From: a bacterium
GTDB lineage: Bacteria; Verrucomicrobiota; Verrucomicrobiia; Limisphaerales; UBA11358
DNA: 64,000 nucleotides
Assembly: GCA_021813325.1 (NCBI GenBank)
Contig: JAKALA010000010.1
Coordinates: 79 to 64,078, forward strand
Direction: 5' to 3'
Shown here: piece after piece, positions 40,551 through 56,099 of the stretch
How positions within the stretch are numbered: the stretch's first letter is position 1
How the letters are laid out: each line of letters starts with the position of its first letter
Program-made: the position numbers and the translations under genes
The notes under the pieces: generated by a model
Databases searched by the model: none
What the model was told of the DNA's origin: nothing
Seen by the model: only the letters and a program-made list of their open reading frames with translations

Positions 40551-40576
40551 TTGTGGTTGGTCAGTTGCGTAAACAC

Positions 40577-42502
40577 ATGCTGAACACCAAGTCATTTTTG
40601 ACCATTGATTTCGGAGCGGGGAGCCTCAAGCTGGCCGAGTTTGAGATCAATGAGGCGGGCGGTTTGCGTCTGGAAAATTTTGTCATCAAGCCGCTGGGGC
40701 TGGAAGGTTCGCTGGAGAGCACGCGCGAAAAGACGATTTTGCAGGCGCTACAATCGACGCTCGCGGAAGCTGGCATCAAAGCTAAAGATGTCAACGTCTG
40801 CGCACCCGGGTTCCACGTCTTCTCCAAGTTTGTCAAGCTGCCGCCGGTGGATGCGGGCAAGGTCGGCCAGATCATCCAATACGAGGCGCAGCAAAATGTT
40901 CCCTTCCCGCTGGCGGAGGTCGTGTGGGACTACCAAATTCTCGGCTCCACGCCGGGCGGCGAACTGGAAGTTTTGCTGGTGGCCGTCAAATCCGACATCG
41001 TCGAGGGTCTTTTCCGCCTGGCGGACCAGGTCAAGCTGAAGCTGCAACTCTGCGACGCGTCCCCCGCCGCCTTGTGCAACGCGTTTCGCTACAATTACGG
41101 CGACTTGGAAGATTGCACCATGCTGCTGGACATCGGCGCCAAGACCAGCAACCTGCTGTTCTTCGAGAAGGGCAAAGTTTTCTCCCGCAGCATCAATCTG
41201 GGAGCCAACACCATCACGCAAGATTTTGCCACGGAAGCCAAGCTGAAGTTCGACGAGGCGGAAAGAATTAAAATTGCCGAGGGCTTTGTCAGTTTGGGCG
41301 GCGCCTACGAAGAGCCGGAAAACGCGCACCAGGCCGCGATTTCCAAGATTGCCCGGCAATTCATGACCAAGCTGCACATTCAAGTCAATCAGACGATGCA
41401 GTTTTATCGCGGGCAGCAGAGCGGCTCGGCTCCGCAGCGCTTGTTTCTGTGCGGCGGCGCGTCGATCATGCCCTACACGGCGCAATTTTTCGCGGAAAAA
41501 CTCAACGTGCCGGTGGAATACTTCAACCCTTTCCGGAATGTTCAAATCAACCCGGAGGTGAACCTAGAAGAGTTGTCGCGCGTCGCGCATTCGCTGGGCG
41601 AAGTCGTCGGCCTCGGCCTGCGGAATCTGGCCAACTGCCCGGTGGAAATGAATTTGATGCCGGACAGCACGTTGCGCTGGCAATCTTTCAATCAAAAGAA
41701 GCCCTACTTTGTGGCCACGGTCATCAGCTTGGTGCTGGTGGCCTTTGGCATCGGGTTTCTATTCCAAAAACTGGCCGCCAACAAGCGGGCGGAAATTGAA
41801 CGGCTGGAGCCGCAGGTGGCCCAGAAAAGCGCCAAGTCCGAGCAATTCAAGGCGGCGTATAACAAGCTCAAAAAATCAGAGGCCAACGCGGATCAATTGG
41901 CCAAGTGGATGGACCAGCGCTATTACTGGGGCGATTTTCTCTCCGAGATCCGGCGGGCGCTGATCCGCTCCGAAACGGGCGTGCAAAAAAATCTGGCCGC
42001 CCACAACCATCCGAATGCGGACGTGGGCATTTGGATCGAGCAAATGACCGCCGCGTCTGAGTTGACGCCCAATGGCAGCACGACGGTTCCGGTCGTTCCC
42101 GTTCCCGGAGCGGGTCCCAATGCCACCTTGGGGGCCGGCGCCAGCGGGGGCATGTCCCCGGCATTGTTGGCTTACCTTCGGGCGGGCGGGCGGCGCGGAT
42201 TGCCGACCCAGGTTGAGCCGCCACCGCCACCGCCGCCGGATCCCAATGCGGCAGGGGCGGCGACGGACGCGACGGCCAACACCAACAGCGTGATTGTGTT
42301 GACCTGCCGCGCGGTGAATTTGACCAGCATTGATCCGTCCGCCAACATTGACATCACTTTCGAGGTGGAAAGTGAGATCAAAAATTCGCCCTTGGTGGAC
42401 GCCAAGGCGACCCAATTGACCGGTCAACTAACGCCGGATGACTCCAACGGCACCTTCACCTTCACCGTGAATGTGATGCCACTGAATCCCTTGAATTTTT
42501 GA
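40577..42502 (+). CDS. pilM: PilM-PilN fusion protein (actin-like ATPase fold + bitopic PilN-like segment + Pro-rich periplasmic extension)
   Basis: FLTIDFGAGSLKLAEF, VNVCAPGFHVFSKFVKLPPV, LLDIGAKTSNLLFFEKGKVFSRSINLGAN and LFLCGGASIMPY form the PilM/FtsA-like part. Then NLMPDS...KKPYFVATVISLVLVAFGIGFLF plus a coiled coil form the PilN-like part, followed by VEPPPPPPPDP. An alternative GTG start is at 40553. Confidence 0.8.
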   Translation: MLNTKSFLTIDFGAGSLKLAEFEINEAGGLRLENFVIKPLGLEGSLESTREKTILQALQSTLAEAGIKAKDVNVCAPGFHVFSKFVKLPPVDAGKVGQIIQYEAQQNVPFPLAEVVWDYQILGSTPGGELEVLLVAVKSDIVEGLFRLADQVKLKLQLCDASPAALCNAFRYNYGDLEDCTMLLDIGAKTSNLLFFEKGKVFSRSINLGANTITQDFATEAKLKFDEAERIKIAEGFVSLGGAYEEPENAHQAAISKIARQFMTKLHIQVNQTMQFYRGQQSGSAPQRLFLCGGASIMPYTAQFFAEKLNVPVEYFNPFRNVQINPEVNLEELSRVAHSLGEVVGLGLRNLANCPVEMNLMPDSTLRWQSFNQKKPYFVATVISLVLVAFGIGFLFQKLAANKRAEIERLEPQVAQKSAKSEQFKAAYNKLKKSEANADQLAKWMDQRYYWGDFLSEIRRALIRSETGVQKNLAAHNHPNADVGIWIEQMTAASELTPNGSTTVPVVPVPGAGPNATLGAGASGGMSPALLAYLRAGGRRGLPTQVEPPPPPPPDPNAAGAATDATANTNSVIVLTCRAVNLTSIDPSANIDITFEVESEIKNSPLVDAKATQLTGQLTPDDSNGTFTFTVNVMPLNPLNF

Positions 42503-42503
42503 T

Positions 42504-43472
42504 ATGGGCTGGATCAAGCGAAATCTGATTTTTGTAATTGGCTGCGTCGTGGCCGTCGCGTTGCTTGGCGCGGCTGGCTTTTACACCTATCAGGGCTGGT
42601 CGCGGAATACGGAAGCCTTCAGCAAGCTCAACGAAATTTACAACACCCTGAGCAGCCTGAAATCGCAACAGCCGTCCCCGGGAAATGAGGTTCACAACAA
42701 CACGGCCATTGCCAGGGACCAACAAAAACAGGTTCAAGAGTGGATCGGTTCCGCCCGCGCCTATTTCCAGTCGATTCCCGCCATTCCTGCGGGGACGGTG
42801 ACCAGTGAAGCGTTTGCTTCCTCGCTGCGTCGCACGGTGGATCAGTTGCAACACGCGGCGGAGGAAAGTGGCGTTACGTTGCCGCCGAAATATGATTTTT
42901 CCTTTTCCGCCGAGCGTCCGTTGGTGCGGTTTGCGGCGGGCAGTTTGGAACCGCTGGCCACCCAGCTTGGCGAGGTCAAATTGATGTCCGACATTCTGTT
43001 TGCCGCGCGGGTTAACGCCTTGGACAGCATCCAGCGCATCCGCGTTTCGGATGACGATGCGAATGGTCCGGCGGGAGATTACACCGACCTGCATGCCGTG
43101 ACCAACGAACTGGCGGTCGTTACGCCCTACGTCGTCACGTTCCGCTGTTTCACGCCGGAACTGGCGCGGGTGCTGGCCGCGTTCGCCACCGCGCCCAACA
43201 CCTTTTTGATCAAGGCCATCAATGTCCAGCCGGCCAGTTCCGTGGTGGCCACTGACGGCGCCGGCGGGGCGGACGCGGCGGCGCCGCAAGCCTACATGGG
43301 CGATCGCGAGGCGATGTTGCTGGCGCGCATGCGGGGGCGGGGCATGCCGGTTTTGCCGCCAGCCCAGCAGATGCAGCCCGTCAGCAAAGGCGGCTTGCAA
43401 ACGGTTTTAAAAGAGCAATTGCTCCGGGTTACGATGGAGGTCGGACTCGTGAAGTTGTTGCCAAAGAGTTAA
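42504..43472 (+). CDS. Amuc_1100-like pilus-associated bitopic protein (assignment from memory of the family)
   Basis: Starts 1 nt after the pilMN stop. N-terminal TM segment LIFVIGCVVAVALLGAAGFY and a 322-aa length. The segments PYVVTFRCFTPELARVLAAFATAPNTFLIKAINVQP and the C-terminal LKEQLLRVTMEVGLVKL mirror the layout I recall for Akkermansia Amuc_1100, which has the same position between the PilM-like gene and the secretin. Confidence 0.6.
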   Translation: MGWIKRNLIFVIGCVVAVALLGAAGFYTYQGWSRNTEAFSKLNEIYNTLSSLKSQQPSPGNEVHNNTAIARDQQKQVQEWIGSARAYFQSIPAIPAGTVTSEAFASSLRRTVDQLQHAAEESGVTLPPKYDFSFSAERPLVRFAAGSLEPLATQLGEVKLMSDILFAARVNALDSIQRIRVSDDDANGPAGDYTDLHAVTNELAVVTPYVVTFRCFTPELARVLAAFATAPNTFLIKAINVQPASSVVATDGAGGADAAAPQAYMGDREAMLLARMRGRGMPVLPPAQQMQPVSKGGLQTVLKEQLLRVTMEVGLVKLLPKS

Positions 43473-43473
43473 A

Positions 43474-44259
43474 ATGCAATTTCTCAAAAAACATTACGAA
43501 AAAATCGTGCTGGGCGTGGTGCTGGCAGGATTGATCGGCGTGCTGGTGCTCATGTTGTTTTACATCGCCTCGGACAAGGAGGAGATGGAAAAGCATGTGA
43601 ATGATTTGATCAATCCTCCGGTCAAGGAACTGGCGGCTTTGGATTTGTCCACCAACAACCAGGCGATGAGCCGCCTGAAAGCGCCTTACGTTCTGGATTT
43701 TGACACCGGAAACAAGATCTTCAATCCGTTTGAATGGCAAAAAACCGCCGATGGCCAGATGGTCAAGAAAGCCGCCAGCGTGGCGCAGGTGGTTTCTGTG
43801 GCGAGCATCGCGCCGTTGGATTTGATGCTTTCGCTGGATTCGGTGACCACCAATGAATTTGGCGCCCGCTATTTGGTGGTGGTGGAACGGCAGGCGGCCG
43901 CCACAGCCGCCAAACGCCAGAAGGTGCGGCGTTATGTCTCCGTGGGCGATCATCCGAACGACATTTTTGAACTGGTCCAGGTCAAAGGGCCGGCGGACAA
44001 TCCGGACGCGCTGGTATTGAAGTTGAACGACAGCGGCGACACCATCACCGTTGGCCGGGACAAGCCGTATCGCCATGTGGAGGGTTACAGCGCCGAGCTG
44101 CGTTATGACATGGGCAAAAAGATCAGCCGCGCCCATCGGGTGGGCGACAAGGATACTTTCGGAGGCACGGAATACGTTATATCCGGCATCGACAAAAACG
44201 AAGTGATCCTCACGGACCAGTCCAATCAGAAAAAAACCTCGTTGCCATTTGCTCCCTGA
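43474..44259 (+). CDS. Amuc_1099-like bitopic protein (in the position usually held by PilP)
   Basis: Starts 1 nt after the upstream stop. N-terminal TM segment IVLGVVLAGLIGVLVLMLFYI and a beta-rich periplasmic domain. The call rests on position only. Confidence 0.45.
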   Translation: MQFLKKHYEKIVLGVVLAGLIGVLVLMLFYIASDKEEMEKHVNDLINPPVKELAALDLSTNNQAMSRLKAPYVLDFDTGNKIFNPFEWQKTADGQMVKKAASVAQVVSVASIAPLDLMLSLDSVTTNEFGARYLVVVERQAAATAAKRQKVRRYVSVGDHPNDIFELVQVKGPADNPDALVLKLNDSGDTITVGRDKPYRHVEGYSAELRYDMGKKISRAHRVGDKDTFGGTEYVISGIDKNEVILTDQSNQKKTSLPFAP

Positions 44260-44311: not shown

Positions 44312-46657
44312 ATGATAAAAGCCGTTATTTCATCCCTCGGGCTTGCCGCCCTGATCGCTTTGCCCGTTACCGCGACAGCGCAGGATAACTCTTCAACCTC
44401 CATTGCGGTGAACGAAGCGGTCTTGCGCCAGTCCTACATCGTGGGGCTTCACGAGAAATTGGCCCAAGCCCAGCAGGTTGAGCAGCGTGGCGAAACCCTG
44501 GCGGCCGCCAAGCTCTATCAGGAATGCTGTGATCTGGTCGCCAAGATTGGCTCGGGCATCGACGCGGAAGCCGCCCAGGCCGTCAACGGCCTCACCAGCA
44601 CGCGCCTCGCCTTGGCGCGGGCCGATCAAAGCCGGGGCGATTATCGCGAGGCCGCCACACAGGTGCAGCAGATTTTAAATGTGGATTCCAAAAACGTCCC
44701 GGCGTTGGATTTCAAGAAAAAGAACGACGCGCTCCTGGCCGCGCAAAAGGGCCGGATTCCCAGCCAATCCGTGGTGGACCAGGTTCCGCAAATCGCGGCC
44801 AAGAAAACGGATGCCAACACCTTGGTGCGTGACGGGCAGATGCTCTACGAGATGGGGGAACTGGAGCAAGCCGAGGCGAAATTGGGGCAGGCTTTGGAAC
44901 TCGATCCGGATAACACCGGCGCTTACTATTACTTGAACCTGGTCCAGCAGGCCAAATACAAACGCGAGACCGAACAACACACGGTGGATACGCAAAAACG
45001 GATTACGGAGGTCGAAAAGAAATGGGTGCTGCCGACTTCACAGGTCAAACTGCCGACGCCAAATCCCTATGCGACCAATACGCTGGTTTACACGGGACCG
45101 GGCCGGCAAAGCATCATTGCCAAACTGGACAAAATTCACCTGGATTCGGTTTCCTTCGACGGCTTGCCGTTGAGCGAAGTGGTGCGCTCTCTGTCGGAAC
45201 AATCGCGACTGCGTGATCCCGAGCACAAAGGCATTAATTTCTTGATCAACTCCAATCCGGATCTTTCCGGGCAGCCGGTTGCCGCTCCTACCACCGGTTT
45301 TGGTGGCGGCTACGGTGGAATTACTCGTGGGGGTGTTGGGGGTGGCTATGGCGGTGACGCCGGTCAAGCGCAGGCGATTGATCCTGCCACCGGTTTGCCG
45401 ATTGCGGCCGGGGCGGCCGCCGCCAGCCCGAGCGAGCCGTTGGACGTTGGTTCGTGGGTGGTGAAGATTCCAAGTCTCACAGATGTTCGCATGGCGGATG
45501 TTCTGGACGCCATCGTCATGGTCTGCGACCATCCGGTGAAATACACGATTACGGATTTTGCGGTGGTTTTCTCTCAAAAAGGCGCGGAAACACCGCAGCT
45601 TTTCAGCCGCGTCTTCAAAGTTGATCCGAACACGTTCTACTCCGGTCTGGAAAGCGTGGGGGTGCAAAGCTTCGGCAGCACGTATAACACGGGCAGCACT
45701 GGTGGCACCGGCGGCGGTGGTGGTGGTGGCGGTGGTGGCAACCAAAACAACAGCGGCGCGGTGGTTGGTGTCGTCAATGCCTTTGCGGGCGCAGGCGGTT
45801 TGCGCAACTACGGAAACAGCGGCGGTGGCGGCGGCGGCGGCGGTGGTGGTGGCCAAGGCGGCCAAGGTGGTCAAATTAACCCCATCAACAACGGCGGCAC
45901 TGGCGGCGCGGGTGGCGCCGGTGGCGGCGGCGGTGGTGGAAATGTCGGCAGCGAGGGCGGCCTGAATTATGTCACCCAGGTGACTTTGGCTTCCGCGCCC
46001 AGCCAGGCGGCGAGAAATTTCTTCACCTCTTTGGGGGTGAATTTGGAACAACCGCCGGGCAAAGCCGTTTTCTTCAATGACCGGCTTGGCAAATTATTCG
46101 TCAAGGCCACGGAACAGGATCTGGACACCATCGAACGGGCGATTGAAGCTTTGAACGAATCCTCGCCACAGGTTCACATCAAGGCCCGTTTCATTGAGGT
46201 TTCGCAAAATGACAGCAAAGCGCTGGGCTTTGACTGGTCCATGGGCCAGTTTAATGTCACCGGCAATGGCTCGGTGGTTGGTTCGGCCGGCAGTTCACCC
46301 TCGTTGACCACGCCGGTTTCGGCGGCGAATCCACTGGGAACCTTCCCGGGCAGCACCACAGCCAGTCAAATTGCCGGGTCGGCCAACGACCAGTTGCTGA
46401 CGGGCGGCTTGCGCCAAACCGGGCCGGCGATTGGCACCGTGACCGGCATCTTGACCGATCCTAATTTTCGCCTGGTGATTCACGCGTTGGAGCAGCGCTC
46501 GGGCGTGGAATTCATGGCGGAACCGGAAATCACCACCACCAGCGGGCGCCAAACCCAGATGAAGGCCACTTCGGTTGAATCGGTCATCACTTCGTATAAC
46601 TTCCAGCAGGGCACGTCGCCCCAAACCTCTGGAACCACAAGCTCGACTGGCCAGTAA
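44312..46657 (+). CDS. secretin, N-terminal cistron: signal peptide, TPR-like region, STN/N-domains, Gly-rich tracts and first strands of the secretin fold
   Basis: Signal peptide LIALPVTATA. TPR-like GQMLYEMGELEQAEAKLGQALELDPDNTGAYYYLNLV. N-domain HLDSVSFDGLPLSEVVRSLSE. The sequence LFVKATEQDLDTIERAIEALNESSPQVHIKARFIEVSQNDSKALGFDW...FMAEPEITTTSGRQTQMKA follows, and the ORF ends at TAA 46655-46657. Confidence 0.8.
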   Translation: MIKAVISSLGLAALIALPVTATAQDNSSTSIAVNEAVLRQSYIVGLHEKLAQAQQVEQRGETLAAAKLYQECCDLVAKIGSGIDAEAAQAVNGLTSTRLALARADQSRGDYREAATQVQQILNVDSKNVPALDFKKKNDALLAAQKGRIPSQSVVDQVPQIAAKKTDANTLVRDGQMLYEMGELEQAEAKLGQALELDPDNTGAYYYLNLVQQAKYKRETEQHTVDTQKRITEVEKKWVLPTSQVKLPTPNPYATNTLVYTGPGRQSIIAKLDKIHLDSVSFDGLPLSEVVRSLSEQSRLRDPEHKGINFLINSNPDLSGQPVAAPTTGFGGGYGGITRGGVGGGYGGDAGQAQAIDPATGLPIAAGAAAASPSEPLDVGSWVVKIPSLTDVRMADVLDAIVMVCDHPVKYTITDFAVVFSQKGAETPQLFSRVFKVDPNTFYSGLESVGVQSFGSTYNTGSTGGTGGGGGGGGGGNQNNSGAVVGVVNAFAGAGGLRNYGNSGGGGGGGGGGGQGGQGGQINPINNGGTGGAGGAGGGGGGGNVGSEGGLNYVTQVTLASAPSQAARNFFTSLGVNLEQPPGKAVFFNDRLGKLFVKATEQDLDTIERAIEALNESSPQVHIKARFIEVSQNDSKALGFDWSMGQFNVTGNGSVVGSAGSSPSLTTPVSAANPLGTFPGSTTASQIAGSANDQLLTGGLRQTGPAIGTVTGILTDPNFRLVIHALEQRSGVEFMAEPEITTTSGRQTQMKATSVESVITSYNFQQGTSPQTSGTTSSTGQ
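45690..45960 (+). repeat. (GGY)n simple-sequence tracts encoding poly-Gly / Gly-Gln runs inside the secretin N-cistron
   Basis: ggtggcaccggcggcggtggtggtggtggcggtggtggc... and ggcggtggcggcggcggcggcggtggtggtggccaaggcggccaaggtggtcaa encode GGTGGGGGGGGGGN..., SGGGGGGGGGGGQGGQGGQ and GGTGGAGGAGGGGGGGN. A shorter GGGYGG tract lies at about 45295-45362. Confidence 0.75.
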
Positions 46658-46680
46658 TTTTAATTTAAAAGCGAGATTCT

Positions 46681-47328
46681 ATGAAAATATACAAGGAAAA
46701 AACCTTATCGGTATTCGCGCTCTTGTGGTTGCTGATGTGGGGCTGTCTTTCGGCTGTTGATGTCGCTCATGCTCAAGGAATCCAGGCGGGAACGTCTGCG
46801 GTGACGCCCGTGACCCAGCAGGTGGAAACGGGGCCGATTCTGGACGTGGTGCCCTACGTTTTGTCGGATGGCTACACAATCAACATGGCGCTCATTCCGT
46901 CGGTGACTGAATTTACCGGTTACGAAACGCCGCCGCCTGTGGCCAGCGTCACCGGCAATTTGAATGTGGTGCAATTACCGGTGGTTTTGCCCAGCTTCAC
47001 CGTGCGGCAGGTGGTCACCACGGTCAACGTGTGGGACAACCAGACGGTGGTTATCGGTGGTTTGGTTTCATCCTCCACGCAAACCACGAAGGACAAGGTT
47101 CCCGGGCTGGGGGATCTGCCGTTTTTCGGACGTTTGTTCCAAAGCCAGTCCAAGACTTCGGTGAAGAAAAACCTGATGATTTTTGTGACGGCCACCATTG
47201 TGGACCCGGCCGGCAACCGGGTGCATTCGGACGACGAATTGCCGTTTGCGCAGACGGGATTTCCCGTGCAGCCGCTGAATGCCGGCAAGCCGGTGGAAAC
47301 CACGGTGCAAAAATTGGGCCAGCCGTAA
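46681..47328 (+). CDS. secretin, C-terminal cistron: own signal peptide + main secretin beta-barrel domain
   Basis: MKIYKEKTLSVFALLWLLMWGCLSAVDVAHA|QG leader. Then GPILDVVPYVLSDGYTINMALIPSV, LPSFTVRQVVTTVNVWDNQTVVIGGLV and KVPGLGDLPFFGRLFQSQSKTSVKKNLMIFVTATIV, the canonical C-terminal secretin motifs. Confidence 0.8.
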   Translation: MKIYKEKTLSVFALLWLLMWGCLSAVDVAHAQGIQAGTSAVTPVTQQVETGPILDVVPYVLSDGYTINMALIPSVTEFTGYETPPPVASVTGNLNVVQLPVVLPSFTVRQVVTTVNVWDNQTVVIGGLVSSSTQTTKDKVPGLGDLPFFGRLFQSQSKTSVKKNLMIFVTATIVDPAGNRVHSDDELPFAQTGFPVQPLNAGKPVETTVQKLGQP

Positions 47329-47336
47329 GCGAGTTC

Positions 47337-48221
47337 GTGAAGCGGCTGCTGATTGTCGATGGCCACGCCTATGCCTACCGGGCGTTTCATGCCATTCGCG
47401 ATTTGCGTTCGCCCTCGGGGCAGCCGACGAATGCCATTTATGGCTTCGTAAAAATGCTGGGGAAAATGCGGACGCTGGTGCAACCGACGGATTTGATGGT
47501 CGTGTGGGACGGCGGATTGAGCGAGGAACGGAGGCGGTTGTTGCCGGATTACAAGGCGCAGCGCGCGGAGATGCCGTTGGATTTGCGGCCGCAGTTGGAT
47601 GAAATGAGCCGCTATTTGGCCGCCGCCGGAGTGGCGGAGTATTGCGGCGATGGCGTGGAAGCGGATGATTACATCGCCAGCTTGGCCCGACGGGCGGCGG
47701 CGGCGGACTGGAGCGTGGTGATCGCCAGTTCCGACAAGGATTTTATGCAGTTGGTCTCGGATCGGATCGGATTATTGAATCCGAACGACAAGAGCGGCGC
47801 GGTCTGGAAACCGGAGCAGGTTTGGTCCAAGACCGGAGTGCGGCCGGATCAGGTGGCGGACTGGCTGGCCTTGATGGGGGATGCGGTGGACAACATTCCG
47901 GGCGTGCCCGGAGTGGGGACCAAAACGGCGGCCGAGCTGCTGAAGCAGTTTGGTTCGATTGACGGCCTGTTCAGCCGGTTGAGCGAGGTGAAATCGGAGA
48001 GATTGCGGATGGCCTTGCAGAAGGCGGTGGCGGACATTCGCAGAAACCAGGCGCTGGTCCGGTTGCCGGATGTGCCGGGTGATTTTTTGCCGGAGCAATT
48101 AAGTCTCCGGCCGGTGAATAATGGGGCGTTGCGTGAGTTGTTTGGCGGCTGGGGTTTTAAGGGCATGCTGGCCGGGCTGGACGCCGCCCTGATTTCGGAG
48201 AAACAGTCGGAATTGATTTGA
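47337..48221 (+). CDS. stand-alone 5'-3' exonuclease (Pol I N-terminal domain / FEN-like)
   Basis: GTG start at 47337 (in frame with track ORF 47031..48221, whose 5' part overlaps the secretin cistron). KRLLIVDGHAYAYRAFHA, DYKAQR, ADDYIASL, SSDKDFMQL and H3TH GDAVDNIPGVPGVGTKTAAELL. Confidence 0.88.
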   Translation: MKRLLIVDGHAYAYRAFHAIRDLRSPSGQPTNAIYGFVKMLGKMRTLVQPTDLMVVWDGGLSEERRRLLPDYKAQRAEMPLDLRPQLDEMSRYLAAAGVAEYCGDGVEADDYIASLARRAAAADWSVVIASSDKDFMQLVSDRIGLLNPNDKSGAVWKPEQVWSKTGVRPDQVADWLALMGDAVDNIPGVPGVGTKTAAELLKQFGSIDGLFSRLSEVKSERLRMALQKAVADIRRNQALVRLPDVPGDFLPEQLSLRPVNNGALRELFGGWGFKGMLAGLDAALISEKQSELI

Positions 48222-48337
48222 AAATGAATTTGCATAGCTGGTTCAACAAGTTGGCTGGAGCTGTGAAGGATCCGGCCGCCGCGGTGGAACTTTTCCAAAG
48301 TTCACGCCGGGGCAGGTTATTTTCCCACTGCGCGACC

Positions 48338-50308
48338 ATGTTTTCCTCCACCCCTTGCAAAGCCCTGGCGCTGGCCATCGGTCTGTCCGTGTCGGCATCG
48401 GCGATCGCTGATGCGCAAACCGCCTATTACACGACCAATGGCACGGAATATCCGCTCGTCGGCGCCTTGCCCTACGACCAGATGTTTCCCGACGTGGCGT
48501 TGTCGGCCAACGGCGGGTTTGTGGTCTGGCAGGATTACGCCACGGATGGCAGCGGCTGGGGTTTGAGCGCCAGCCGGCTGGAGGCCAATCTGACGGAATC
48601 ATTGAATTTGAGCCATTTCCGGGTCAATGCCACGGGGGATTACGATCAGGAAAAGCCGCGCGTTGCGATGTTGAAAGATGGCGGGGCCGTGTTTGTATGG
48701 CAGGGTGGCCAACCCGGTTACCAGCACATTTACGGGCGCTTTTTGACCGCCACCAACACCTTCCGTTCCACCAACGACCTGGCGATCAACGCCACGACCA
48801 ATTGCTTTCAGCTCAACCCGTCTCTGGCTGTGCTGAACAACAGCAACGTCGTGGTCGTTTGGGCGAGCCTCAACCAAGCCGGGCCAAACAGCCTGCAGGA
48901 TGTTTACGCGAAGATTCTTTCGCCGACGGGGACCACGGTGAAGAGTGAATTTCTGGTCAATCAATTCATCAGTTTCAACCAGCGTTCTCCGGTGGTGACG
49001 GCGCTGAAGAATGGCGGTTTTGCGGTGGCTTGGGTGTCCGAGCAGCAACGGGTGGCCGCGCCGGTGTTGGGGACAAACTCGACCGCGCAGGCCGTCAGCA
49101 GCCTGGTGGTTCCGAGTGTGGATATTTACGCCCGCTTGTTCCAAAGCAGCGGGACGGCGGCGGGCAATGAATTCCGGGTGAATGCCGACAATTCCCCCGG
49201 CGCCAATCCGGCCATCGCATCCGCTGCGGATGGCAGTTTCATGGTGGCCTGGTCGGCGTATGATACCCTCGTGCAAAGCAACGGCTGGGATGTCTGTGCG
49301 CGGCCTTTTGACCCGAATGGCGTCGGCGGAACGGCCTTTCTGGTTAATACACACACGTTGGGCGACCAATACGCGCCCTTGGTTTGCGCCCTGGGCAAGG
49401 ACTATTTGCTGGCTTGGACCAGCGATGGTCAGGATGGCTCGCGCGAAGGCGTTTATGGCCGGTTTGTCCATGAAGACGGCACCCCGACCAGCGCCGAATT
49501 CCAGGTGAACACCACCACGGCCAGCCAGCAAATGCAGCCGGCGGTGGCGTCGGATGGCGGCAATCAATTTTTGGCGGTATGGACCTCGTTTACGGGGTTG
49601 AATTCCAGTTTCGATGTTTATGCGCAGCGCTTCATCAATGTTGACGCGGCCTTGATGCCCATGCCGGCGCCGTTTGTTTTCCGTCCATTCGTGGTCAGCA
49701 ACGGAGTGTATCAACCGCAATTGCAGGTGGTCTGGAAACCGCTGGATGGCATTGTGGTTTCCAACTACGAGGTTTATGTGGATGGCGCGGCCACGCCGAT
49801 GGCGGCCACGACCAGCAATGTTTGGGTGATGACGGCGGCCAATGGGTTGACGGCTAACAGCACGCATTCCTTCCAAATCGACTATGTCAAGCCTAGCGGA
49901 TCACGCCCGCCGCTTTCGGCGGCCACCAGCCAGACCACTTGGGGTGGAATGAACTGGGGCGGTGTGCCGTTTGAATGGATGACCGAATACTATGGCTCCG
50001 ATGTGAGCACTTGGCCTTCGCCAAATGCAAACTTGCCGGGGGGAAATTTAACCTTGGCCAAGATTTTTTTGAGTGGCGGCAATCCGCTGGATCCCAGCAC
50101 GTGGCTGACCCAGCAAATTGTGAATACCAAGGCCGGGGTTTATTTGTTCTGGAATACCCAGCCGGGCTTGACCTATCAGGTGCAAGTCACCACGGATTTC
50201 GCCAACTGGACCAATGTGGGCGATCCCCATTTCGCGACCGATGTTCAATCCTCGGTTTTACTCGGCCAAAGTGCCGCCGGGTATTACCGGATATTGCTGG
50301 TGCGCTAA
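48338..50308 (+). CDS. secreted 7-repeat (beta-propeller-like) protein + FN3-like domain + C-terminal YYRIL module
   Basis: Signal peptide MFSSTPCKALALAIGLSVSASAIADA. Seven ~55-aa repeats follow the pattern (E)F.VN...Q..P.va....G.F.VaW.S...dG...V(Y/C)(G/A)R.F...G, for example EFRVNADNSPGANPAIASAADGSFMVAWSA and EFQVNTTTASQQMQPAVASDGGNQFLAVWTS. The tail is VYLFWNTQPGLTYQVQVTTDFANW...GYYRILLVR. Confidence 0.7.
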   Translation: MFSSTPCKALALAIGLSVSASAIADAQTAYYTTNGTEYPLVGALPYDQMFPDVALSANGGFVVWQDYATDGSGWGLSASRLEANLTESLNLSHFRVNATGDYDQEKPRVAMLKDGGAVFVWQGGQPGYQHIYGRFLTATNTFRSTNDLAINATTNCFQLNPSLAVLNNSNVVVVWASLNQAGPNSLQDVYAKILSPTGTTVKSEFLVNQFISFNQRSPVVTALKNGGFAVAWVSEQQRVAAPVLGTNSTAQAVSSLVVPSVDIYARLFQSSGTAAGNEFRVNADNSPGANPAIASAADGSFMVAWSAYDTLVQSNGWDVCARPFDPNGVGGTAFLVNTHTLGDQYAPLVCALGKDYLLAWTSDGQDGSREGVYGRFVHEDGTPTSAEFQVNTTTASQQMQPAVASDGGNQFLAVWTSFTGLNSSFDVYAQRFINVDAALMPMPAPFVFRPFVVSNGVYQPQLQVVWKPLDGIVVSNYEVYVDGAATPMAATTSNVWVMTAANGLTANSTHSFQIDYVKPSGSRPPLSAATSQTTWGGMNWGGVPFEWMTEYYGSDVSTWPSPNANLPGGNLTLAKIFLSGGNPLDPSTWLTQQIVNTKAGVYLFWNTQPGLTYQVQVTTDFANWTNVGDPHFATDVQSSVLLGQSAAGYYRILLVR

Positions 50309-50322
50309 CTAATTTATTTTGT

Positions 50323-52650
50323 ATGCAGCAAATGCTTAAACGAATTGTTTGGATTCTCCTGCTGGCTTCCGGCTTGCAAACCTCCTGGGGTTTTTCTGTG
50401 GAGGGTCCGATCGCCAATGGCGGTGACGCCTGGCAGGCGGCCAGTCTTGGATATGGCCCCCCATTTGACGTGGTTGCCCCCAAAAATCTGGGCGAAGAAT
50501 ACCGCCGTAATATTCCCACGAATTATTATGCGTTTGACGCGAATTTTTATGATTATTTTGGCCCGGAAGGAGCCGCCTCCGTGGAGGCCACGTTTGCCAT
50601 GCTGAATTCGCTGACCGATGTGGATTCATACAGCCAGCAGTTGACGGAATTTTCCCTGGAAACGCGGCAGATGAATTATCAAGCGCAGGCGTTGGGATTG
50701 CTGGACTTGAAATCTTACACGCTCACGCTGATGATGAGCCAGGTCGGCTTGGCAAACCCGATCGCATACGCCTGGACCTTGCATAATCGGACTTTGCCTC
50801 CTGGCGCGGCTTGTCCGAATTATTTTTACACGGTTGTGCAGCGGAATTTTGACTTTTATGCGACCGCCTTGAACCAGTTGCCATACTCGCCCTACATCAA
50901 TAACACGCTTTATAACTATCGAATCCGTGAAGAGTGCCCCGTGGTGGATCGGGCCAAGGCAATTCCCTTTGCCGTCGATAAACTGGCCAACATTTATTCG
51001 CCAGTGGCCTCCGAGCAAATCGAATGGGGCGATTATTTCATCGGCCTCACCCGGGATGACGCGGCGGGAATGCGCTATCTGCTGTCCACCAACAATATCA
51101 ATTGGGAAACGCCGGCGGCGGATAGTTTGCTGGTCATCACCAACTTTGCGGCGCAAGCCTTGTTCCCAGCCTCAATCGCGACCAACAGCGGCTATTTGTA
51201 TCCCGGCGATGGGACTTATTATGGCACCGCCAGCTTGAGTGCGTTGTTGAGCTATGCCAGCACCAACAATCTGGCCACCATCCAGGCGCGGTTTCCCGGC
51301 GTGCAGGCCACGGTGGTTTCCAACTACTACACGACCGTCTGGATCACCAATACCGTTGCGTATTATACGAATTATTATGGAGAAGCCATCGGTTCGCCGG
51401 CCCATCTGATTGTCACTTCCGTCCCGACCTTGGCGGTGGTTCCGAACTATGTTTATCATTTTGATAATATCATCATCTGGACCAATTACTCACTGAGCAC
51501 CACTTCCTATATTCAGACCATCACCGTTGGTCCGCAAAACGGCGCCCCGATTGGCAGTCCCAATGCGACCAACGTCACCACGACCACGGTGTCGAACTCA
51601 GTTGCTTCTGGTGAATTTTATATTTTGCCGACCAACAGTCCTTGCGGCGTGGACATTCTTGAACCGCCGCTGCTCACGCTCACGAATTACACGACCAACG
51701 TGCTGGTGTTCTCCAGTTCCACCAACGTGACCACGACCGGAACCAACACGACGACCTCGACCACAACCACGACCAATTCAACCCAGTCCTACACCCAACA
51801 GGAGGTGACGCCCAGCCTCAGTCATGTGTTTCTGATCCATCCGGTGACATGTGGCGAAACCAACGCCATATCGGGCTTATACCGTGGTATTGGAAAAATC
51901 CGATATGTCCGGGCCGATTTTGATTCAATGTTGGGTCAATACTGGCAGCCGATCACCAACGATTACACCATGCAGTTGATCACCAACGGCGTGGAAACCA
52001 CCCGCAGTTTCCGACGGATCGTGACGCAGCCGGACTTTTTGTTTTCCGCCTTGGATCTGACGCCGGGACCAAGCAGTTTGGTCATTCAAGGCATGACGCA
52101 ATCGACCGTTCCGCCTTTTGATACGGCCAACGTCTATCCCGGATTGGCTGGACCGGGGACGATTACGCCGGCCACCACCATTTCCTTCAACAAGGACGGC
52201 CCTCTCTATTACAATCAATACCCCGACCAACTGACTGGAAATCCGTATTTTAAACCCGGCAATACGCCGGGAAGTGACTTGGCGGATTCCTTTTTCAGCG
52301 GTTATTTTACTTGGGCGTCGTTTGACGGCACCACCAACGCTCCGACGGTTTATCCCAACGGCACCAGTCTTGACAATCTGGCGCGCCAAATCCTAGTGCA
52401 ATTTTCACCGGCCACCCTGCCGCTGGGTTCGGCAGGGGACGCGTATAAGACTCAATTTAGTGCGACTGGCGGTGGGTTCACCGCGCCGTTTACTTGGACC
52501 TCCACCGAATTGCCGGCGGGATTGACCTTGACCCCCGGTGGTTCGCTTTCAGGCACCCCAACGGTGGCGGGCACTTATGATTTCACCCTGACATTGACAG
52601 ACGTCAATTCACGATCTGTGCAATGGAATTACACGATTATCATTCAATGA
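50323..52650 (+). CDS. secreted 775-aa protein of unknown function with Thr-rich linker and C-terminal putative Ig (He_PIG-like) domain
   Basis: Leader MQQMLKRIVWILLLASGLQTSWG, 14 nt after the upstream stop. NVTTTGTNTTTSTTTTTNST linker. The C-terminus LPLGSAGDAYKTQFSATGGGFTAPFTWTSTELPAGLTLTPGGSLSGTPTVAGTYDFTLTLTD fits the 'putative Ig' pattern. Confidence 0.65.
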   Translation: MQQMLKRIVWILLLASGLQTSWGFSVEGPIANGGDAWQAASLGYGPPFDVVAPKNLGEEYRRNIPTNYYAFDANFYDYFGPEGAASVEATFAMLNSLTDVDSYSQQLTEFSLETRQMNYQAQALGLLDLKSYTLTLMMSQVGLANPIAYAWTLHNRTLPPGAACPNYFYTVVQRNFDFYATALNQLPYSPYINNTLYNYRIREECPVVDRAKAIPFAVDKLANIYSPVASEQIEWGDYFIGLTRDDAAGMRYLLSTNNINWETPAADSLLVITNFAAQALFPASIATNSGYLYPGDGTYYGTASLSALLSYASTNNLATIQARFPGVQATVVSNYYTTVWITNTVAYYTNYYGEAIGSPAHLIVTSVPTLAVVPNYVYHFDNIIIWTNYSLSTTSYIQTITVGPQNGAPIGSPNATNVTTTTVSNSVASGEFYILPTNSPCGVDILEPPLLTLTNYTTNVLVFSSSTNVTTTGTNTTTSTTTTTNSTQSYTQQEVTPSLSHVFLIHPVTCGETNAISGLYRGIGKIRYVRADFDSMLGQYWQPITNDYTMQLITNGVETTRSFRRIVTQPDFLFSALDLTPGPSSLVIQGMTQSTVPPFDTANVYPGLAGPGTITPATTISFNKDGPLYYNQYPDQLTGNPYFKPGNTPGSDLADSFFSGYFTWASFDGTTNAPTVYPNGTSLDNLARQILVQFSPATLPLGSAGDAYKTQFSATGGGFTAPFTWTSTELPAGLTLTPGGSLSGTPTVAGTYDFTLTLTDVNSRSVQWNYTIIIQ

Positions 52651-55600
52651 AGAGCAAGACTTACCTGAACCACCCGTTCAAATTGGGGCGTGGCTTGATG
52701 CATTGGCCGCTGCTTTGTGGCTTGTTATTGCTGCCCTTCGCTGGGAAAACGGAGGCGGCGGACGGCCTTTACCAGAATGATGCCGTCATCACTTATCCTG
52801 GGACGGTCATGTATCCGCCGGTGGTGGATGCCACTAATTTTGTCAATACCGGCACCTTCCTGATCAATTTTACCGATCCGAATCTGACGGCCGGGTATAT
52901 CCAGCCTTTCTATGAAACCTCGGATACGCTGAATTACACCAACACGGGTTTGATGATGGTGAACAGCGGTTTCCGGTTTGATTTGCAATTCCCGACAAAT
53001 GCCATCTCCGGTGTTATTGCGCAAACAAATCGTCTGCCGGCGGCTAATTTCTACAATCAAGGCACGGTGAGTTGCAGTTCCACCAACAACACGACGGACC
53101 CTTATTTTGGTTTGCTCGGCTCCTATTTGGGTTACGCCCAGTGTTTTGTGAATGCCACCAACGTGGTGAATCCGGGTGATATTGTCGCTGGCGTTGATGG
53201 ATTGATCCAATTGAAGGGCCATTCGATCAATATGGAAAACGGCTCCCTTCGCATTGAGGGCAACAACACCGGGGCCAACGTGTTTGGCGCGGGTGACTTT
53301 GGTTTGAATACCAATTTTTGGAATCCTTATTTTGACCTGTATGCCATCGCCCCGGAAGCCCTGTCATCGCCACCGCGGCAGTTATTATTGACGAATGCCT
53401 CAGCTTATATTTTTCCTTACCCGGGAGTGAGCAACAACATTTATAACGTGGTATTCCTGCAAGACGCGCCCAACGCCAACATTACTCACAATGTTTATTT
53501 GGGCAACAGCCAAAGATACGCCTATATCGAGTGGATCGGACAATATCAGGATGCGGCCACCGGCGAATTCCGGAAGAATTATTTTTATCTCGCCGACGAT
53601 TATATTTTGGGGGCTTCCACCAATGTGATGCTACAGGCCAACGGCATACCTGACAATTTTTACTTCTATGCTTCCCCAACCAAACTTGGGCTCGGAACCC
53701 CTACGCCCAAAGGTCTGTCTAATATCTTCCCGAACGAAGGGATTACCAATCTCTATTCGTATGCCAGCATTGATTTGACATCAGTTACCGCACCGACCAA
53801 TTCCATCTCCAATTATTCGATCACCAACCTGCCCGGGCGCGTCGAACTGCTGGCGGATCAGGATTTGAATCTTTCCAACTCGGTCATCACCGGCCCCAAT
53901 TACTTGTCGGTGCAGGCTCCCCAACAGTTTGACGGCAGCGCGGGTGCCCGGATTGAGGCGCCCTATGCGGACATCAACGTCGGTGCCACCAACGGCCTTT
54001 TGACGGTGTCGAACTTGTTCACGCCGGTTCTCCTAAATTGGAATGGTAACATTCGGGCGTGGACCACCCGTTGGCAGAGTGTGGATGCCACCGGGGTGAC
54101 CAATGATTTCCACGTTTTGATCGTGGGCAGCCAGCTTCAGCCCACGACCCTGGCCCAAGTGCAGGATTTGTTCTTGCATGGCACGAACAGCATTGTCCTG
54201 AGTGATTCCATGAACGTGATGCGCAATTTCTCTGCCGATGCGCAAAACCTGACGATAACCACCAACGGTTTTGGTCAAGGCGCGACTTCGCTTGCGGGCG
54301 GTTTAAATCTGGAAACGTCAGGCATATTCTGGTCCAGTGCGCTGCCCAATTTGCGGAATCTCACCAATAACGGCGCGATCCAAACCCTGAATCTGGCCCA
54401 GTTCATGGGTTGCTCCAACAATATCGCGGTCAAAAATTCCGTTGCTGCCGTGGCCGCCGGCGGCACGCTTTCGGAAGTGTCTGCTGCCAACGTGGTCAAT
54501 GGTTCAACAGTAACTATTTTCACGAACAACTACGTGTTTGTGTCCCAACTCACGAACAGCCTGCCGAACCAGGTCATGATCGCCTCGACCCTCGACGGCT
54601 CCCTGAGCAATCTGGTCGCCGCCATCAACAGCGGGAGTGGTCCCAGCTCGGCTTATAGCTCCAATACTCTGGCCAATCCGCTGGTCCAGGCGGGCGCGAT
54701 GGCGTCCACTGGCAGCCTCACCAACCACGGTTTTGTGGTGTCCGCCCGGACGGCCGGAACCAATGGCAACCTCATCAAAATCGCCACCACCTCGGCGAGT
54801 TTGACTTGGAACGGCTTTACCAAGTTGACCGGCGGCGCCGAAGCGGTTGTGGGTTCCACCAACATTGTCAGCACCACGAACTATCCCTACGGTAACTTCG
54901 TCAACCGGGGCTTGCTGGTGGACGAAGGCGCCGTCCTTTGGGCCAATAACTTTGAAAGCAGCGGCATTATTTCCAACCAGATCAGCAGCATTTCCACTGG
55001 ATCATTCATTGCCACCAACGTAACCACCACGTTAACCAATGGCACCCTTGTGGCCGGCGGCGACATTGTCATTACCACGGGCAGTTTGGTGACCAGTAAT
55101 GTGCTCTTGCAAGCCGGGTTGTCCTTGCAATTGAATGTCAGCGGCACCCTCAGCGACACCTGCTTGACCAATGGCAACATCTGGACCGTGCAGGCCGCGA
55201 ATTCCACCGGCGGCAATGGCTTGATGATGTTGACCAAACCCCACGCAGGCGATTTGCTCGGCACTACCATCACGAATTTTGCCCCCGCTCCCAACCGGCA
55301 GACCCTCAATTATTGGGCCGGTGCCGACTACGGCGTTTCCAGCGCCGGATTCGCCAACAACGGCGCCATCGGCCATTTGGTGCTGGATGCGGTGGGACCC
55401 AACAGCCAGTTCCGATTCTATGGCGTGGGTGCCACCAACGCCATTTACGTGGATCTGCTGGAGTTCAAGGACGCCATGACCAACGGCATCAACAACAGCT
55501 TCGATTTCGGCCAGAACCTGTTCATCAACAGCAATATTACAATCTATTTCTCGCAGGCGATCGCGAATGGAGTCTCCATTGCCGAGAAAATTGATGATGC

Positions 55601-56099
55601 GAGCAAGGTTGGTCGCAATAACGGCCGGTTGCGCTGGGTGCCATCCTACGCCGGCTTCAACAGCTCGGTGACGCAGGTGGATTTGAGCGAAAACGATGGG
55701 GTTACCACGGCCACCACCAACACCTACAACGCCGCCTTGGCCAACAGCAGCACCATTGACTCCAACGGGGATGGCATTGCCAATGGCAAGAACAGCCCGA
55801 ACCCGACGTTCTTCACTTCAGCGCAGGTGAATTTGCAACCGGCGGTCACCAATTCCACGCCACCAGGCTTTGCGATCACGTGGAACAGCATTCCCGGGTC
55901 CACCAATACCGTTTATTACACGACGAACATGGCCTCTGGCGCATGGATGACCCTCACCAATTTCGTGTCGCCCTCGGTGGTGCCACCGGTGAATGGCTGG
56001 CCCATCACTAACCGGGTGTTTGATTTGATGAATCCGACCCAGAACCGCAGCTACAAAGTGGAAGTGATGCCGAACTCGGCCATGATGTATGGCGAATAA
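52647..56099 (+). CDS. secreted 1150-aa Asn/Thr/Gly-rich protein, probably beta-helical, unknown function, C-terminal FN3-like module
   Basis: Its ATG overlaps the upstream TGA (ATGA at 52647-52650). Leader HWPLLCGLLLLPFAGKTEA. Many short N-x-T/S-rich strand-like segments. The tail is FAITWNSIPGSTNTVYYTTNMASGAWMTL...NRSYKVEV. Confidence 0.65.
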   Translation: MKSKTYLNHPFKLGRGLMHWPLLCGLLLLPFAGKTEAADGLYQNDAVITYPGTVMYPPVVDATNFVNTGTFLINFTDPNLTAGYIQPFYETSDTLNYTNTGLMMVNSGFRFDLQFPTNAISGVIAQTNRLPAANFYNQGTVSCSSTNNTTDPYFGLLGSYLGYAQCFVNATNVVNPGDIVAGVDGLIQLKGHSINMENGSLRIEGNNTGANVFGAGDFGLNTNFWNPYFDLYAIAPEALSSPPRQLLLTNASAYIFPYPGVSNNIYNVVFLQDAPNANITHNVYLGNSQRYAYIEWIGQYQDAATGEFRKNYFYLADDYILGASTNVMLQANGIPDNFYFYASPTKLGLGTPTPKGLSNIFPNEGITNLYSYASIDLTSVTAPTNSISNYSITNLPGRVELLADQDLNLSNSVITGPNYLSVQAPQQFDGSAGARIEAPYADINVGATNGLLTVSNLFTPVLLNWNGNIRAWTTRWQSVDATGVTNDFHVLIVGSQLQPTTLAQVQDLFLHGTNSIVLSDSMNVMRNFSADAQNLTITTNGFGQGATSLAGGLNLETSGIFWSSALPNLRNLTNNGAIQTLNLAQFMGCSNNIAVKNSVAAVAAGGTLSEVSAANVVNGSTVTIFTNNYVFVSQLTNSLPNQVMIASTLDGSLSNLVAAINSGSGPSSAYSSNTLANPLVQAGAMASTGSLTNHGFVVSARTAGTNGNLIKIATTSASLTWNGFTKLTGGAEAVVGSTNIVSTTNYPYGNFVNRGLLVDEGAVLWANNFESSGIISNQISSISTGSFIATNVTTTLTNGTLVAGGDIVITTGSLVTSNVLLQAGLSLQLNVSGTLSDTCLTNGNIWTVQAANSTGGNGLMMLTKPHAGDLLGTTITNFAPAPNRQTLNYWAGADYGVSSAGFANNGAIGHLVLDAVGPNSQFRFYGVGATNAIYVDLLEFKDAMTNGINNSFDFGQNLFINSNITIYFSQAIANGVSIAEKIDDASKVGRNNGRLRWVPSYAGFNSSVTQVDLSENDGVTTATTNTYNAALANSSTIDSNGDGIANGKNSPNPTFFTSAQVNLQPAVTNSTPPGFAITWNSIPGSTNTVYYTTNMASGAWMTLTNFVSPSVVPPVNGWPITNRVFDLMNPTQNRSYKVEVMPNSAMMYGE

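Follow-up and report, generated by a model that had tools for sequence, protein, structure and literature searches.

Two adjacent open reading frames (ORFs), ORF1 and ORF2, on contig JAKALA010000010.1 of the Limisphaerales (UBA11358) assembly GCA_021813325.1 each carry part of a secretin, which raises the question of whether a secretin gene has been destroyed at this locus or whether one secretin is built from two separately exported chains. The whole stretch analysed, here called the window, comprises 64,000 nucleotides (nt), and an earlier inspection of its letters (the sequence-only reading) had named both possibilities, a functional two-polypeptide secretin and an insertion-killed pseudogene. 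As judged from comparative sequence analysis, we consider it likely that ORF1 and ORF2 together make a functional two-chain secretin; it would be a naturally 'nicked' PilQ-like secretin with a tetratricopeptide repeat (TPR) region, distantly related to the Amuc_1098 family.

One secretin domain across two open reading frames

The pair and its parts are as follows (aa, amino acids); the barrel portions and the two limbs of the gate loop, Gate 1, are assigned by alignment to other secretins, as described further below.

44312..46657, plus strand: ORF1, putative secretin chain A, 781 aa, mature form ~78 kDa; its parts are a signal peptide (aa 1-23, ATA|QD), a TPR region (~aa 27-236), N-domains and the first portion of the secretin domain
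46169..46654, plus strand: barrel portion of ORF1, from aa 620 (QVHIKARFIEV, first strand) to the C-terminus, including E629
46568..46654, plus strand: predicted Gate 1 ascending limb and T/S/G-rich C-terminal tail of ORF1, aa 753-781, TSVESVITSYNFQQGTSPQTSGTTSSTGQ
46655..46680, plus strand: junction, TAA stop and 23-nt A/T-rich spacer
46681..47328, plus strand: ORF2, putative secretin chain B, 215 aa, mature form ~19.5 kDa
46681..46773, plus strand: ORF2 signal peptide, aa 1-31, predicted cleavage AHA|QG
46774..46833, plus strand: predicted Gate 1 descending limb, ORF2 aa 32-51, ending at the invariant G51 (placed by profile alignment, invariant columns and a strand, 765-785, in the structure model of the fused relative P0186)
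47005-47007, plus strand: ORF2 residue R109, counterpart of R337 of the phage secretin pIV

The coordinates of both ORFs, the TAA at 46655-46657 and the 23-nt gap are as the sequence-only reading had described them, and every one of its sequence-level statements holds. It had placed stops in two frames at the junction: the string TAATTTTAATTTAA carries TAA at 46655 and 46661 in the ORF1 frame, and a further TAA at 46666-46668 shuts the ORF2 frame upstream of ATG 46681, which is therefore the only possible ORF2 start. Its hand count of ~27% G+C compares with a measured 27.7% over 65 nt (46650-46714), against 58% across the gene pair, and 65-nt stretches at or below 31% G+C make up only 0.05% of all those in the window. 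The others lie only around 4642, 10121, 57139 and 59932-59968, at least two of them at gene starts (the end of 3073..4647 with the next start, and the start at 10117). No plus-strand terminator-like or promoter-like site was found at the junction within the window. An antisense sigma-70-like promoter match (TTCATA-17-TAAAAT, 46685..46657, minus strand) spans it and is probably a by-product of the A/T-rich spacer, the regional total of such matches being equal to the shuffle expectation.

Pfam scans showed the secretin domain to be shared between the two ORFs. PF00263 matched ORF2 at aa 33-175 over profile positions 41-169 of 169 (100 bits; gathering score 27.5), and a scan of ORF1 alone returned TPR matches only, without a secretin match. 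When the ORF1 C-terminus was joined in silico to mature ORF2, the match extended over positions 1-169 of 169 (103.7 bits), so that the match, divided at the junction, was restored in the fusion; the complete domain is present only across both chains. Longer NCBIfam models are divided between ORF1 and ORF2 as well: positions 3-163 and 160-290 of MshL (TIGR02519), 301-442 and 468-591 of GspD (TIGR02517), and 210-322 and 343-462 of the SctC model. Positions 5-379 of the Amuc_1098_fam model (NF042912) are covered by ORF1 (208.6 bits) and positions 642-804 of 805 by ORF2 (128.7 bits), scores so far below its cut-off of 750 bits that the pair is a distant relative of the Amuc_1098 family and not an equivalog. 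Ahead of the barrel, Secretin_N gave a weak match to the ORF1 C-terminal region, below its gathering score (12.6 bits, E = 0.16), and PF03958 has a precomputed match on one homologue (P0181). Strand-helix modules precede the barrel in the structure model of the fused relative, and the N3 regions of PilQ, GspD and pIV align there.

Retention of the split and of the second leader

When one genome per GTDB species was scanned, 80 loci were obtained, of which 70 are split, nine are fused and one is cut by a contig end; a first motif-based classification had missed 17 of them, and a looser anchor placed all but one. Almost all are labelled Verrucomicrobiota, 'subdivision 3' or Limisphaerales, and they come from peat, soil and lakes. 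Some contigs bearing this verrucomicrobial locus are titled Bifidobacteriaceae (binchicken bins), Acidiferrales, Limnocylindrales, Sulfopaludibacter or Sulfotelmatobacter (L011, L030, L035, L036, L043, L046, L049, L050, L052, L076, L080), probably through bin contamination or mislabelling of public metagenome-assembled genomes (MAGs). The best 120 ORF2 homologues in a collection of 5.8 billion proteins come from many independent sources, have 66-84% identity to ORF2 and measure, without exception, 199-243 aa. Leaders are likewise present on more distant short forms (52-61% identity), and in two contigs with such forms the break is at the same loop. Source annotations of the homologues call chain A a 'tetratricopeptide (TPR) repeat protein' or hypothetical and chain B 'general secretion pathway protein D', and none of them marks the pair as one secretin.

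Selection on the two halves was estimated as the ratio of nonsynonymous to synonymous substitution rates (dN/dS; Nei-Gojobori, 60 species pairs), which was 0.20 for mature ORF2, 0.16 for the barrel-homologous C-terminal part of ORF1, 0.19 for the ORF1 TPR region, 0.27 for the ORF1 tail and 0.47 for the ORF2 leader, values that are rough because dS is near saturation (1.1-1.6). Both halves are under purifying selection, with dN/dS well below 1. It is thus very improbable that an insertion or nonsense mutation killed a secretin gene and left a fortuitous leader downstream. Such a pseudogene would agree with the intact fused versions in related genomes and with the atypical composition of the junction; however, the same architecture is found in 70 of 80 species and in lineages down to ~52% identity, dN/dS is 0.16-0.20 on both halves, and the leader features with their invariant A|Q, the stop type, the spacer length and the start context are all conserved. 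The pseudogene option of the sequence-only reading is therefore rejected. Comparison of the orthologous locus in related Verrucomicrobiota, which it had suggested, finds the stop and the leader kept, and the continuous ORF that it took as a possible sign of recent disruption occurs in a minority of relatives (9 of 80), at least one of which looks like a secondary re-fusion.

An artefact of assembly or sequencing, or a recent disruption confined to this strain, has an almost negligible chance of being correct: the exact ORF1 and ORF2 proteins are each present on 5 contigs in the protein database, and hundreds of independent metagenome assemblies (JGI, ENA, NCBI, Logan) hold the same two ORFs with differing spacers and frames. 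This bears out the earlier view that the junction is no one-base frameshift or sequencing slip.

ORF2 opens with MKIYKEKTLSVFALLWLLMWGCLSAVDVAHA|QG, that is, with a basic n-region, a hydrophobic core and an A-x-A site, and from these features and their conservation we read it as a Sec-type leader. The description of it as a textbook leader stands, and this layout is kept across relatives. All of the best 120 ORF2 homologues start with MK followed by basic residues and a hydrophobic core, and Ala-Gln is invariant where cleavage is predicted; in 20 homologues, A31 and Q32 are invariant whilst the remaining leader residues vary. Leaders in relatives measure 28.5 aa at the median and carry a charge of +3 in the n-region, with a cleavage site of the form [AVGT]-x-A|Q in 44 of 51 loci. 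The ORF1 leader (ATA|QD) and the ORF2 leader (AHA|QG) both end in A|Q, and the second might have arisen as a duplicate of the first, although signal peptides of 30 residues are very short and biased in composition. A lipoprotein signal on ORF2 was considered and rejected: the ...MWGC... of the window is not a canonical lipobox, and a leader Cys occurs in only 18 of 44 leaders, a lack of conservation that argues against such a signal.

Upstream of the leader, ORF1 ends in relatives with ...F-x-F-Q-Q-G and a T/G/S-rich tail, a tail type kept in split species. Of 51 loci, 48 end ORF1 with TAA; spacers are mostly 14-32 nt long and rich in A before the ORF2 start, which is nearly always ATGAAA, and only 15 of the 51 loci have a Shine-Dalgarno-like motif. 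Junction G+C is low in all species, at 0.28-0.49 vs 0.53-0.62 for the locus. Gene starts in the window show a general dip in G+C (-25..+40; median 0.49), with 0.34-0.38 for the neighbouring operon genes and 0.29 for ORF2, and we read the low-GC patch as a translation-initiation region plus a Lys-rich n-region, at the extreme of this dip. A foreign or mobile origin of the patch was set aside, as it is confined to the spacer and the first ~10 codons; no search for repeats or insertion-element traces was made.

Programmed recoding, by which readthrough or frameshifting would yield a single fused secretin, might be suggested by the adjacency of the cistrons and the short spacer, but its likelihood is minute. 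ORF2 lies at +2 relative to ORF1 in 29 species, at 0 in 22 and at +1 in 9, and the occurrence of all three relative frames excludes recoding of either kind. The TAA found in 48 of 51 loci is moreover often followed by further stops, with the ORF2 frame of the window shut by TAA 46666-46668, and a readthrough product would put ~30 hydrophobic leader residues into the gate loop.

How split and fused forms are related was examined in neighbour-joining (NJ) trees of concatenated ORF1 and mature ORF2, with distant fused outgroups and 60 bootstraps. The two forms interleave, with 5-10 state changes by Fitch parsimony in each of the 60 bootstraps. One fused locus, L048 (JBEKBA010000037.1, a SPRUCE 125 MAG), nests in an all-split clade in 60/60 replicates, and its loop before GPLLDVVPY reads FSFQSPPASTSTGGGGTT-INNPGPSAITV, a split-type tail joined to a split-type mature N-terminus. 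This suggests a secondary re-fusion by in-frame deletion of the stop, spacer and leader. Since a stop, a start and an export signal are far more easily deleted than created, we tentatively favour one or few fissions followed by several re-fusions. Beyond the parsimony counts we claim no ancestral state for the clade, as the NJ rooting is unstable (one outgroup grouped with L082). The split and fused architectures appear functionally equivalent and interchangeable in these sequences, and this interchange argues that both build the same structure.

Position of the break and proposed contribution of each chain

Among ORF1 homologues of 54-64% identity, 17 are fused proteins (948-990 aa) with a PF00263 domain. 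They differ from ORF1 plus ORF2 at the junction only, where they have a low-complexity G/N/S loop of ~25-30 residues flanked by ...VVTGFSFDNG and AGIASVSPSTQQVETGPILDVVPY. In the window, this loop is replaced by the ORF1 tail, stop codon, spacer and ORF2 leader, after which mature ORF2 (QGIQAGTSAVTPVTQQVETGPILD...) picks up where the loop ends. The sequence-only reading had located the break in a loop early in the secretin domain, and this proved accurate: it lies at ~position 40/169 of PF00263, in the Gate 1 loop.

This loop was identified by profile-profile alignment (hhalign) of the fused family with M13/f1 pIV (probability 97.7%), which reproduces the published pIV hinges bounding Gate 1 (precursor G288 and G318, mature G267 and G297). 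Hinge 1 of pIV, G267, aligns to ORF1 T753, and hinge 2, G297, to the invariant ORF2 G51. In Vibrio cholerae GspD (VcGspD), G453 is the gate hinge (PMC7545093), and alignment to it also puts ORF1 T753 (46568-46570) at hinge 1. The hinge 1 glycine of classical secretins (pIV G267, VcGspD G453, XcpD G466) is thus Thr in this secretin family. In type II secretion systems the central gate is a loop between two glycine pivots, with a poorly resolved tip (PMC10550240). On this alignment, the break would be flanked by the two hinge positions of Gate 1 and would lie opposite the tip of the loop, a part seen as disordered in cryo-electron microscopy maps.

A structure model agrees with this placement. 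The fused relative P0186 was modelled as a monomer with AlphaFold 2 (AF2) from a 64-sequence alignment, an attempt with 17 sequences having been discarded (predicted local distance difference test, pLDDT, ~25 in the secretin part). The model has an overall pLDDT of 71.7, with 85-95 in the secretin strand blocks, and its strands 729-740 and 765-785 flank a 24-residue loop of pLDDT <50, exactly at the break. Residues 426-528 of P0186 also have pLDDT <50; they are the counterpart of a poly-Gly region of ORF1, where low-complexity tracts stand between the N-domains at ~45300-45370 (aa ~330-350) and ~45700-45950 (aa ~465-545). In a Foldseek search with the model, the best 39 matches in the PDB were all secretins. 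The double-walled barrel fold with two gate hairpins is supported by AF2, Foldseek and hhalign for the fused relative only. The TM-scores were too low for residue-level mapping, and the residue mapping therefore rests on hhalign to pIV.

Both chains would contribute to the barrel. After the N3-like module, ORF1 has the first barrel strand QVHIKARFIEV, a variable lip, a return strand and helix (DPNFRLVIHALEQ), the first inner-barrel strand and the Gate 1 ascending limb; this portion was recognised from the alignment to M13 pIV, the GspD, PilQ, MshL and SctC models and alignments to PDB structures, and its first strand corresponds to strand 590-601 of P0186, where the AF2 blocks have a mean pLDDT of ~86-95. 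ORF2 has the Gate 1 descending limb, the remaining inner barrel with Gate 2, the last outer-barrel strands and a C-terminal tail. The assignment of strands to the outer or inner barrel is one we infer from the description of pIV. In pIV a salt bridge, E185-R337, joins the outer and inner barrels; it maps to ORF1 E629 and ORF2 R109, and as these lie on different chains, the bridge would be an inter-chain one. R109 is found in 50/50 split species, whilst the E629 position is E in ~40 and Q in 7. The sequence-only reading had pictured a periplasmic N-domain subunit and a separate barrel subunit. A functional two-polypeptide secretin is indeed favoured, but this division of labour does not stand, since ORF1 also has barrel strands and the Gate 1 ascending limb, so each protomer's barrel must need both chains.

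The same evidence bears on whether the two products might act separately, ORF2 alone as a minimal barrel and ORF1 as an independent, pilotin-like TPR scaffold in the periplasm or at the outer membrane, its C-terminal secretin remnant taking no part in the pore. The C-terminal two-thirds of PF00263, the best-conserved part, do lie in ORF2, the TPR region is similar to pilotin-type modules (PMC4960237), and rhizobia have an N-domain-only RhcC1 apart from a complete-barrel RhcC2. We nevertheless judge separate action improbable. What follows the N-domains in ORF1 aligns with GspD, PilQ and pIV over their first barrel strands, helix and first inner strand, and is under constraint as strong as that on ORF2 (dN/dS 0.16); the salt-bridge partners are conserved on different chains; mature ORF2 begins in the middle of the Gate 1 hairpin, without its pairing strand; and repeated changes between the fused and the split state imply that the finished structure is the same.

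For the two-chain secretin we propose the following route. ORF1 and ORF2 would probably be co-transcribed, and the TAA stop, short A-rich spacer and ATGAAA start would make translation coupling possible. Each chain is predicted to be exported by Sec via its own cleavable leader; the two new termini are periplasmic, as was the ancestral loop, so separate export agrees with the topology. From chain A (~78 kDa) would come the TPR region and the N-domains and, within the barrel domain, the first strands of the outer barrel with the lip, the first strand of the inner barrel and the Gate 1 ascending limb. Chain B (~19.5 kDa) would add the Gate 1 descending limb, the other strands of the inner barrel together with Gate 2, the last strands of the outer barrel and the C-terminal tail. 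Chain B, which has no N-domain or TPR region, would presumably be targeted by pairing with chain A. The chains would complement one another as fragments to give standard protomers and, from these, a multimeric double-walled barrel whose central plug is built from free chain ends and not from closed loops. The break would be structurally tolerated because the Gate 1 tip faces the lumen, is the most variable and disordered site, and is already an extended G/N/S loop in fused relatives.

The split might also be adaptive instead of neutral, the free ends altering gating (easier opening, a wider or leakier pore) or the separate gene altering the stoichiometry or regulation of chain B. In favour of this, the split is the prevailing state (70 of 80 species), the ORF1 tail has FQQG and a T-rich stretch where fused forms have F(D/N)NG and an N/G-rich loop, and gate flexibility is critical in secretins (PMC10550240). 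Repeated interconversion, including the apparent re-fusion, fits near-neutrality, and we regard an adaptive origin as possible but rather unlikely.

Several points weigh against a two-chain secretin with a cut gate as set out here. Hinge 1 is Thr and not Gly, so the gate pivot and its mechanics may differ from those of the model systems. The Gate 1 mapping rests on a profile alignment and on a monomer model of a fused relative, and the Foldseek TM-scores to solved secretins are modest (TMt 0.2-0.56). The tree is by NJ only, which leaves the number and direction of fission and fusion events uncertain, and the dN/dS estimates suffer from the near-saturated dS given above. Export of both chains, their 1:1 co-assembly and any effect on gating are what we infer from these data. 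Taken together, the divided domain, the retained leader and the constraint on both halves still argue for a functional secretin of two chains.

Gene neighbourhood, implications and known systems

The genes immediately upstream of the pair are:

40553..42502, plus strand: PilM-like gene, 649 aa, first in the cluster; Pfam PilM_2 at aa 18-358, NCBIfam Amuc_1101_fam
42504..43472, plus strand: Amuc_1100-family pilus-like protein, 322 aa; NCBIfam Amuc_1100_fam at 66 bits, below the cut-off of 180
43474..44259, plus strand: 261-aa protein with an N-terminal transmembrane helix, at the Amuc_1099 position, without a family match

The PilM-like gene matches Amuc_1101_fam at 472 bits, below the cut-off of 650. 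After PilM_2 it continues with a transmembrane helix, a coiled coil and a Pro-rich tail, and it looks like a PilM-PilN-type fusion. On three long contigs (L001, L002, L004), PilM and Amuc_1100 are followed by a gene of ~265 aa, then by counterparts of ORF1 (750-775 aa) and ORF2 (216-219 aa), and then by a 5'-3' exonuclease; on these contigs the second gene has PF28028 (Amuc_1100) and a 261-271-aa gene stands at the Amuc_1099 position.

Downstream of the pair, the window has a run of very large plus-strand ORFs: 48218..50308 (696 aa), 49975..52650 (891 aa), 52623..56099 (1158 aa) and 56156..>64000 (>2600 aa). The first two, which were the ones scanned, gave no NCBIfam match; they overlap by 333 nt, and one of their starts is probably miscalled. 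Similarly large genes stand at this place in relatives, one of them with a He_PIG domain (L001).

On balance we regard it as fairly likely that this is the first natural secretin, and possibly the first outer-membrane beta-barrel, whose barrel domain comes from two separately Sec-exported chains, with a break at the gate tip and repeated fission and in-frame re-fusion. A split secretin as such is a known kind, from the Rhc systems; a cut within the barrel domain, between adjacent cistrons, would be new. The folding, insertion and gating of the giant double barrels of secretins are still debated, and with this locus a large verrucomicrobial radiation would offer a natural experiment on how secretins fold, are targeted and gate. 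The conserved cut in Gate 1 suggests that covalent continuity of the central gate is dispensable, and a 19.5-kDa fragment without an N-domain, a TPR region or a pilotin-binding module would still have to reach the outer membrane, which would constrain models of assembly. Matched natural pairs of split and fused forms, including the apparent re-fusion, would lend themselves to tests of gate dynamics and permeability. Because chain A is labelled a TPR protein and chain B a short GspD, the pilus machine of abundant soil and peat Verrucomicrobiota is easily misread as being without a proper secretin.

The closest known counterpart is the Amuc_1098-1102 cluster of Akkermansia muciniphila, which is medically studied for Amuc_1098-1100 and to which the locus is homologous: here as there, an Amuc_1101-type PilM, Amuc_1100 and a small transmembrane protein are followed by the secretin. 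Amuc_1098 ('PilQ') is a single protein of 907 residues, with a TPR region at 71-239 and a secretin domain at 650-876 (PMC4960237). The window pair shares with it the signal peptide, the N-terminal TPR region and the C-terminal secretin domain (PMC4960237), but is encoded by two cistrons where Amuc_1098 is one polypeptide. The Akkermansia literature consulted for this locus type mentions no split secretin, and a 2026 paper on Amuc_1098 has nothing on the architecture of the secretin.

Secretins encoded in pieces are nevertheless known, so that the statement of the sequence-only reading that no two-piece secretin had been described does not hold. In the Rhc-type type III secretion systems (T3SS) of rhizobia and some Pseudomonas syringae, the secretin is encoded in two (sometimes three) genes, rhcC1 (nolW) and rhcC2, and is considered functional (PMC3574062, PMC3973906); these were the only split, bipartite or heteromeric secretins to emerge from full-text literature searches. 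On a Sinorhizobium fredii plasmid, NolW (233 aa) has T3S N0 and Secretin_N domains only, without PF00263, and RhcC2 (475 aa) has the complete PF00263 (1-169 of 169) together with its own N-domains. The rhcC2 gene was recognised, after a tblastn search of ORF2 against plasmids, by its place between a ttsI-like regulator and a CpaD/y4xK-like lipoprotein, in agreement with PMC3973906; it lies ~13 kb from nolW, and the two genes belong to different transcription units (PMC3973906). The resemblance is therefore limited to a secretin encoded in pieces. RhcC1 and RhcC2 are split between modules, with the barrel whole in one chain, whereas here the break is inside PF00263 (~position 40/169), in the predicted Gate 1 loop; and the rhizobial genes lie apart in a T3SS cluster, whereas the cistrons of the window are adjacent, in a type IV pilus-like PilM/Amuc_1100 cluster with no T3SS genes nearby.

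In canonical secretins, which are single polypeptides, two glycine hinges bound a closed Gate 1 loop of ~31 residues (PMC8563730). The pair appears to have the same fold as PilQ, GspD, InvG and f1 pIV, and shares their motifs, the hinge 2 glycine and the E-R salt bridge between the barrels; unlike in these proteins, the loop would comprise ~49 residues in two pieces (29 + 20), hinge 1 is Thr, and the second piece has its own signal peptide. A precedent for barrel assembly from fragments is reportedly offered by the engineered split OmpA of Koebnik (EMBO J 1996), in which two exported fragments, cut in a loop, are said to assemble in vivo. That OmpA is a laboratory construct and a monomeric 8-stranded barrel, whereas the break described here is natural and conserved, and would sit within a 14-15-mer double-walled barrel.

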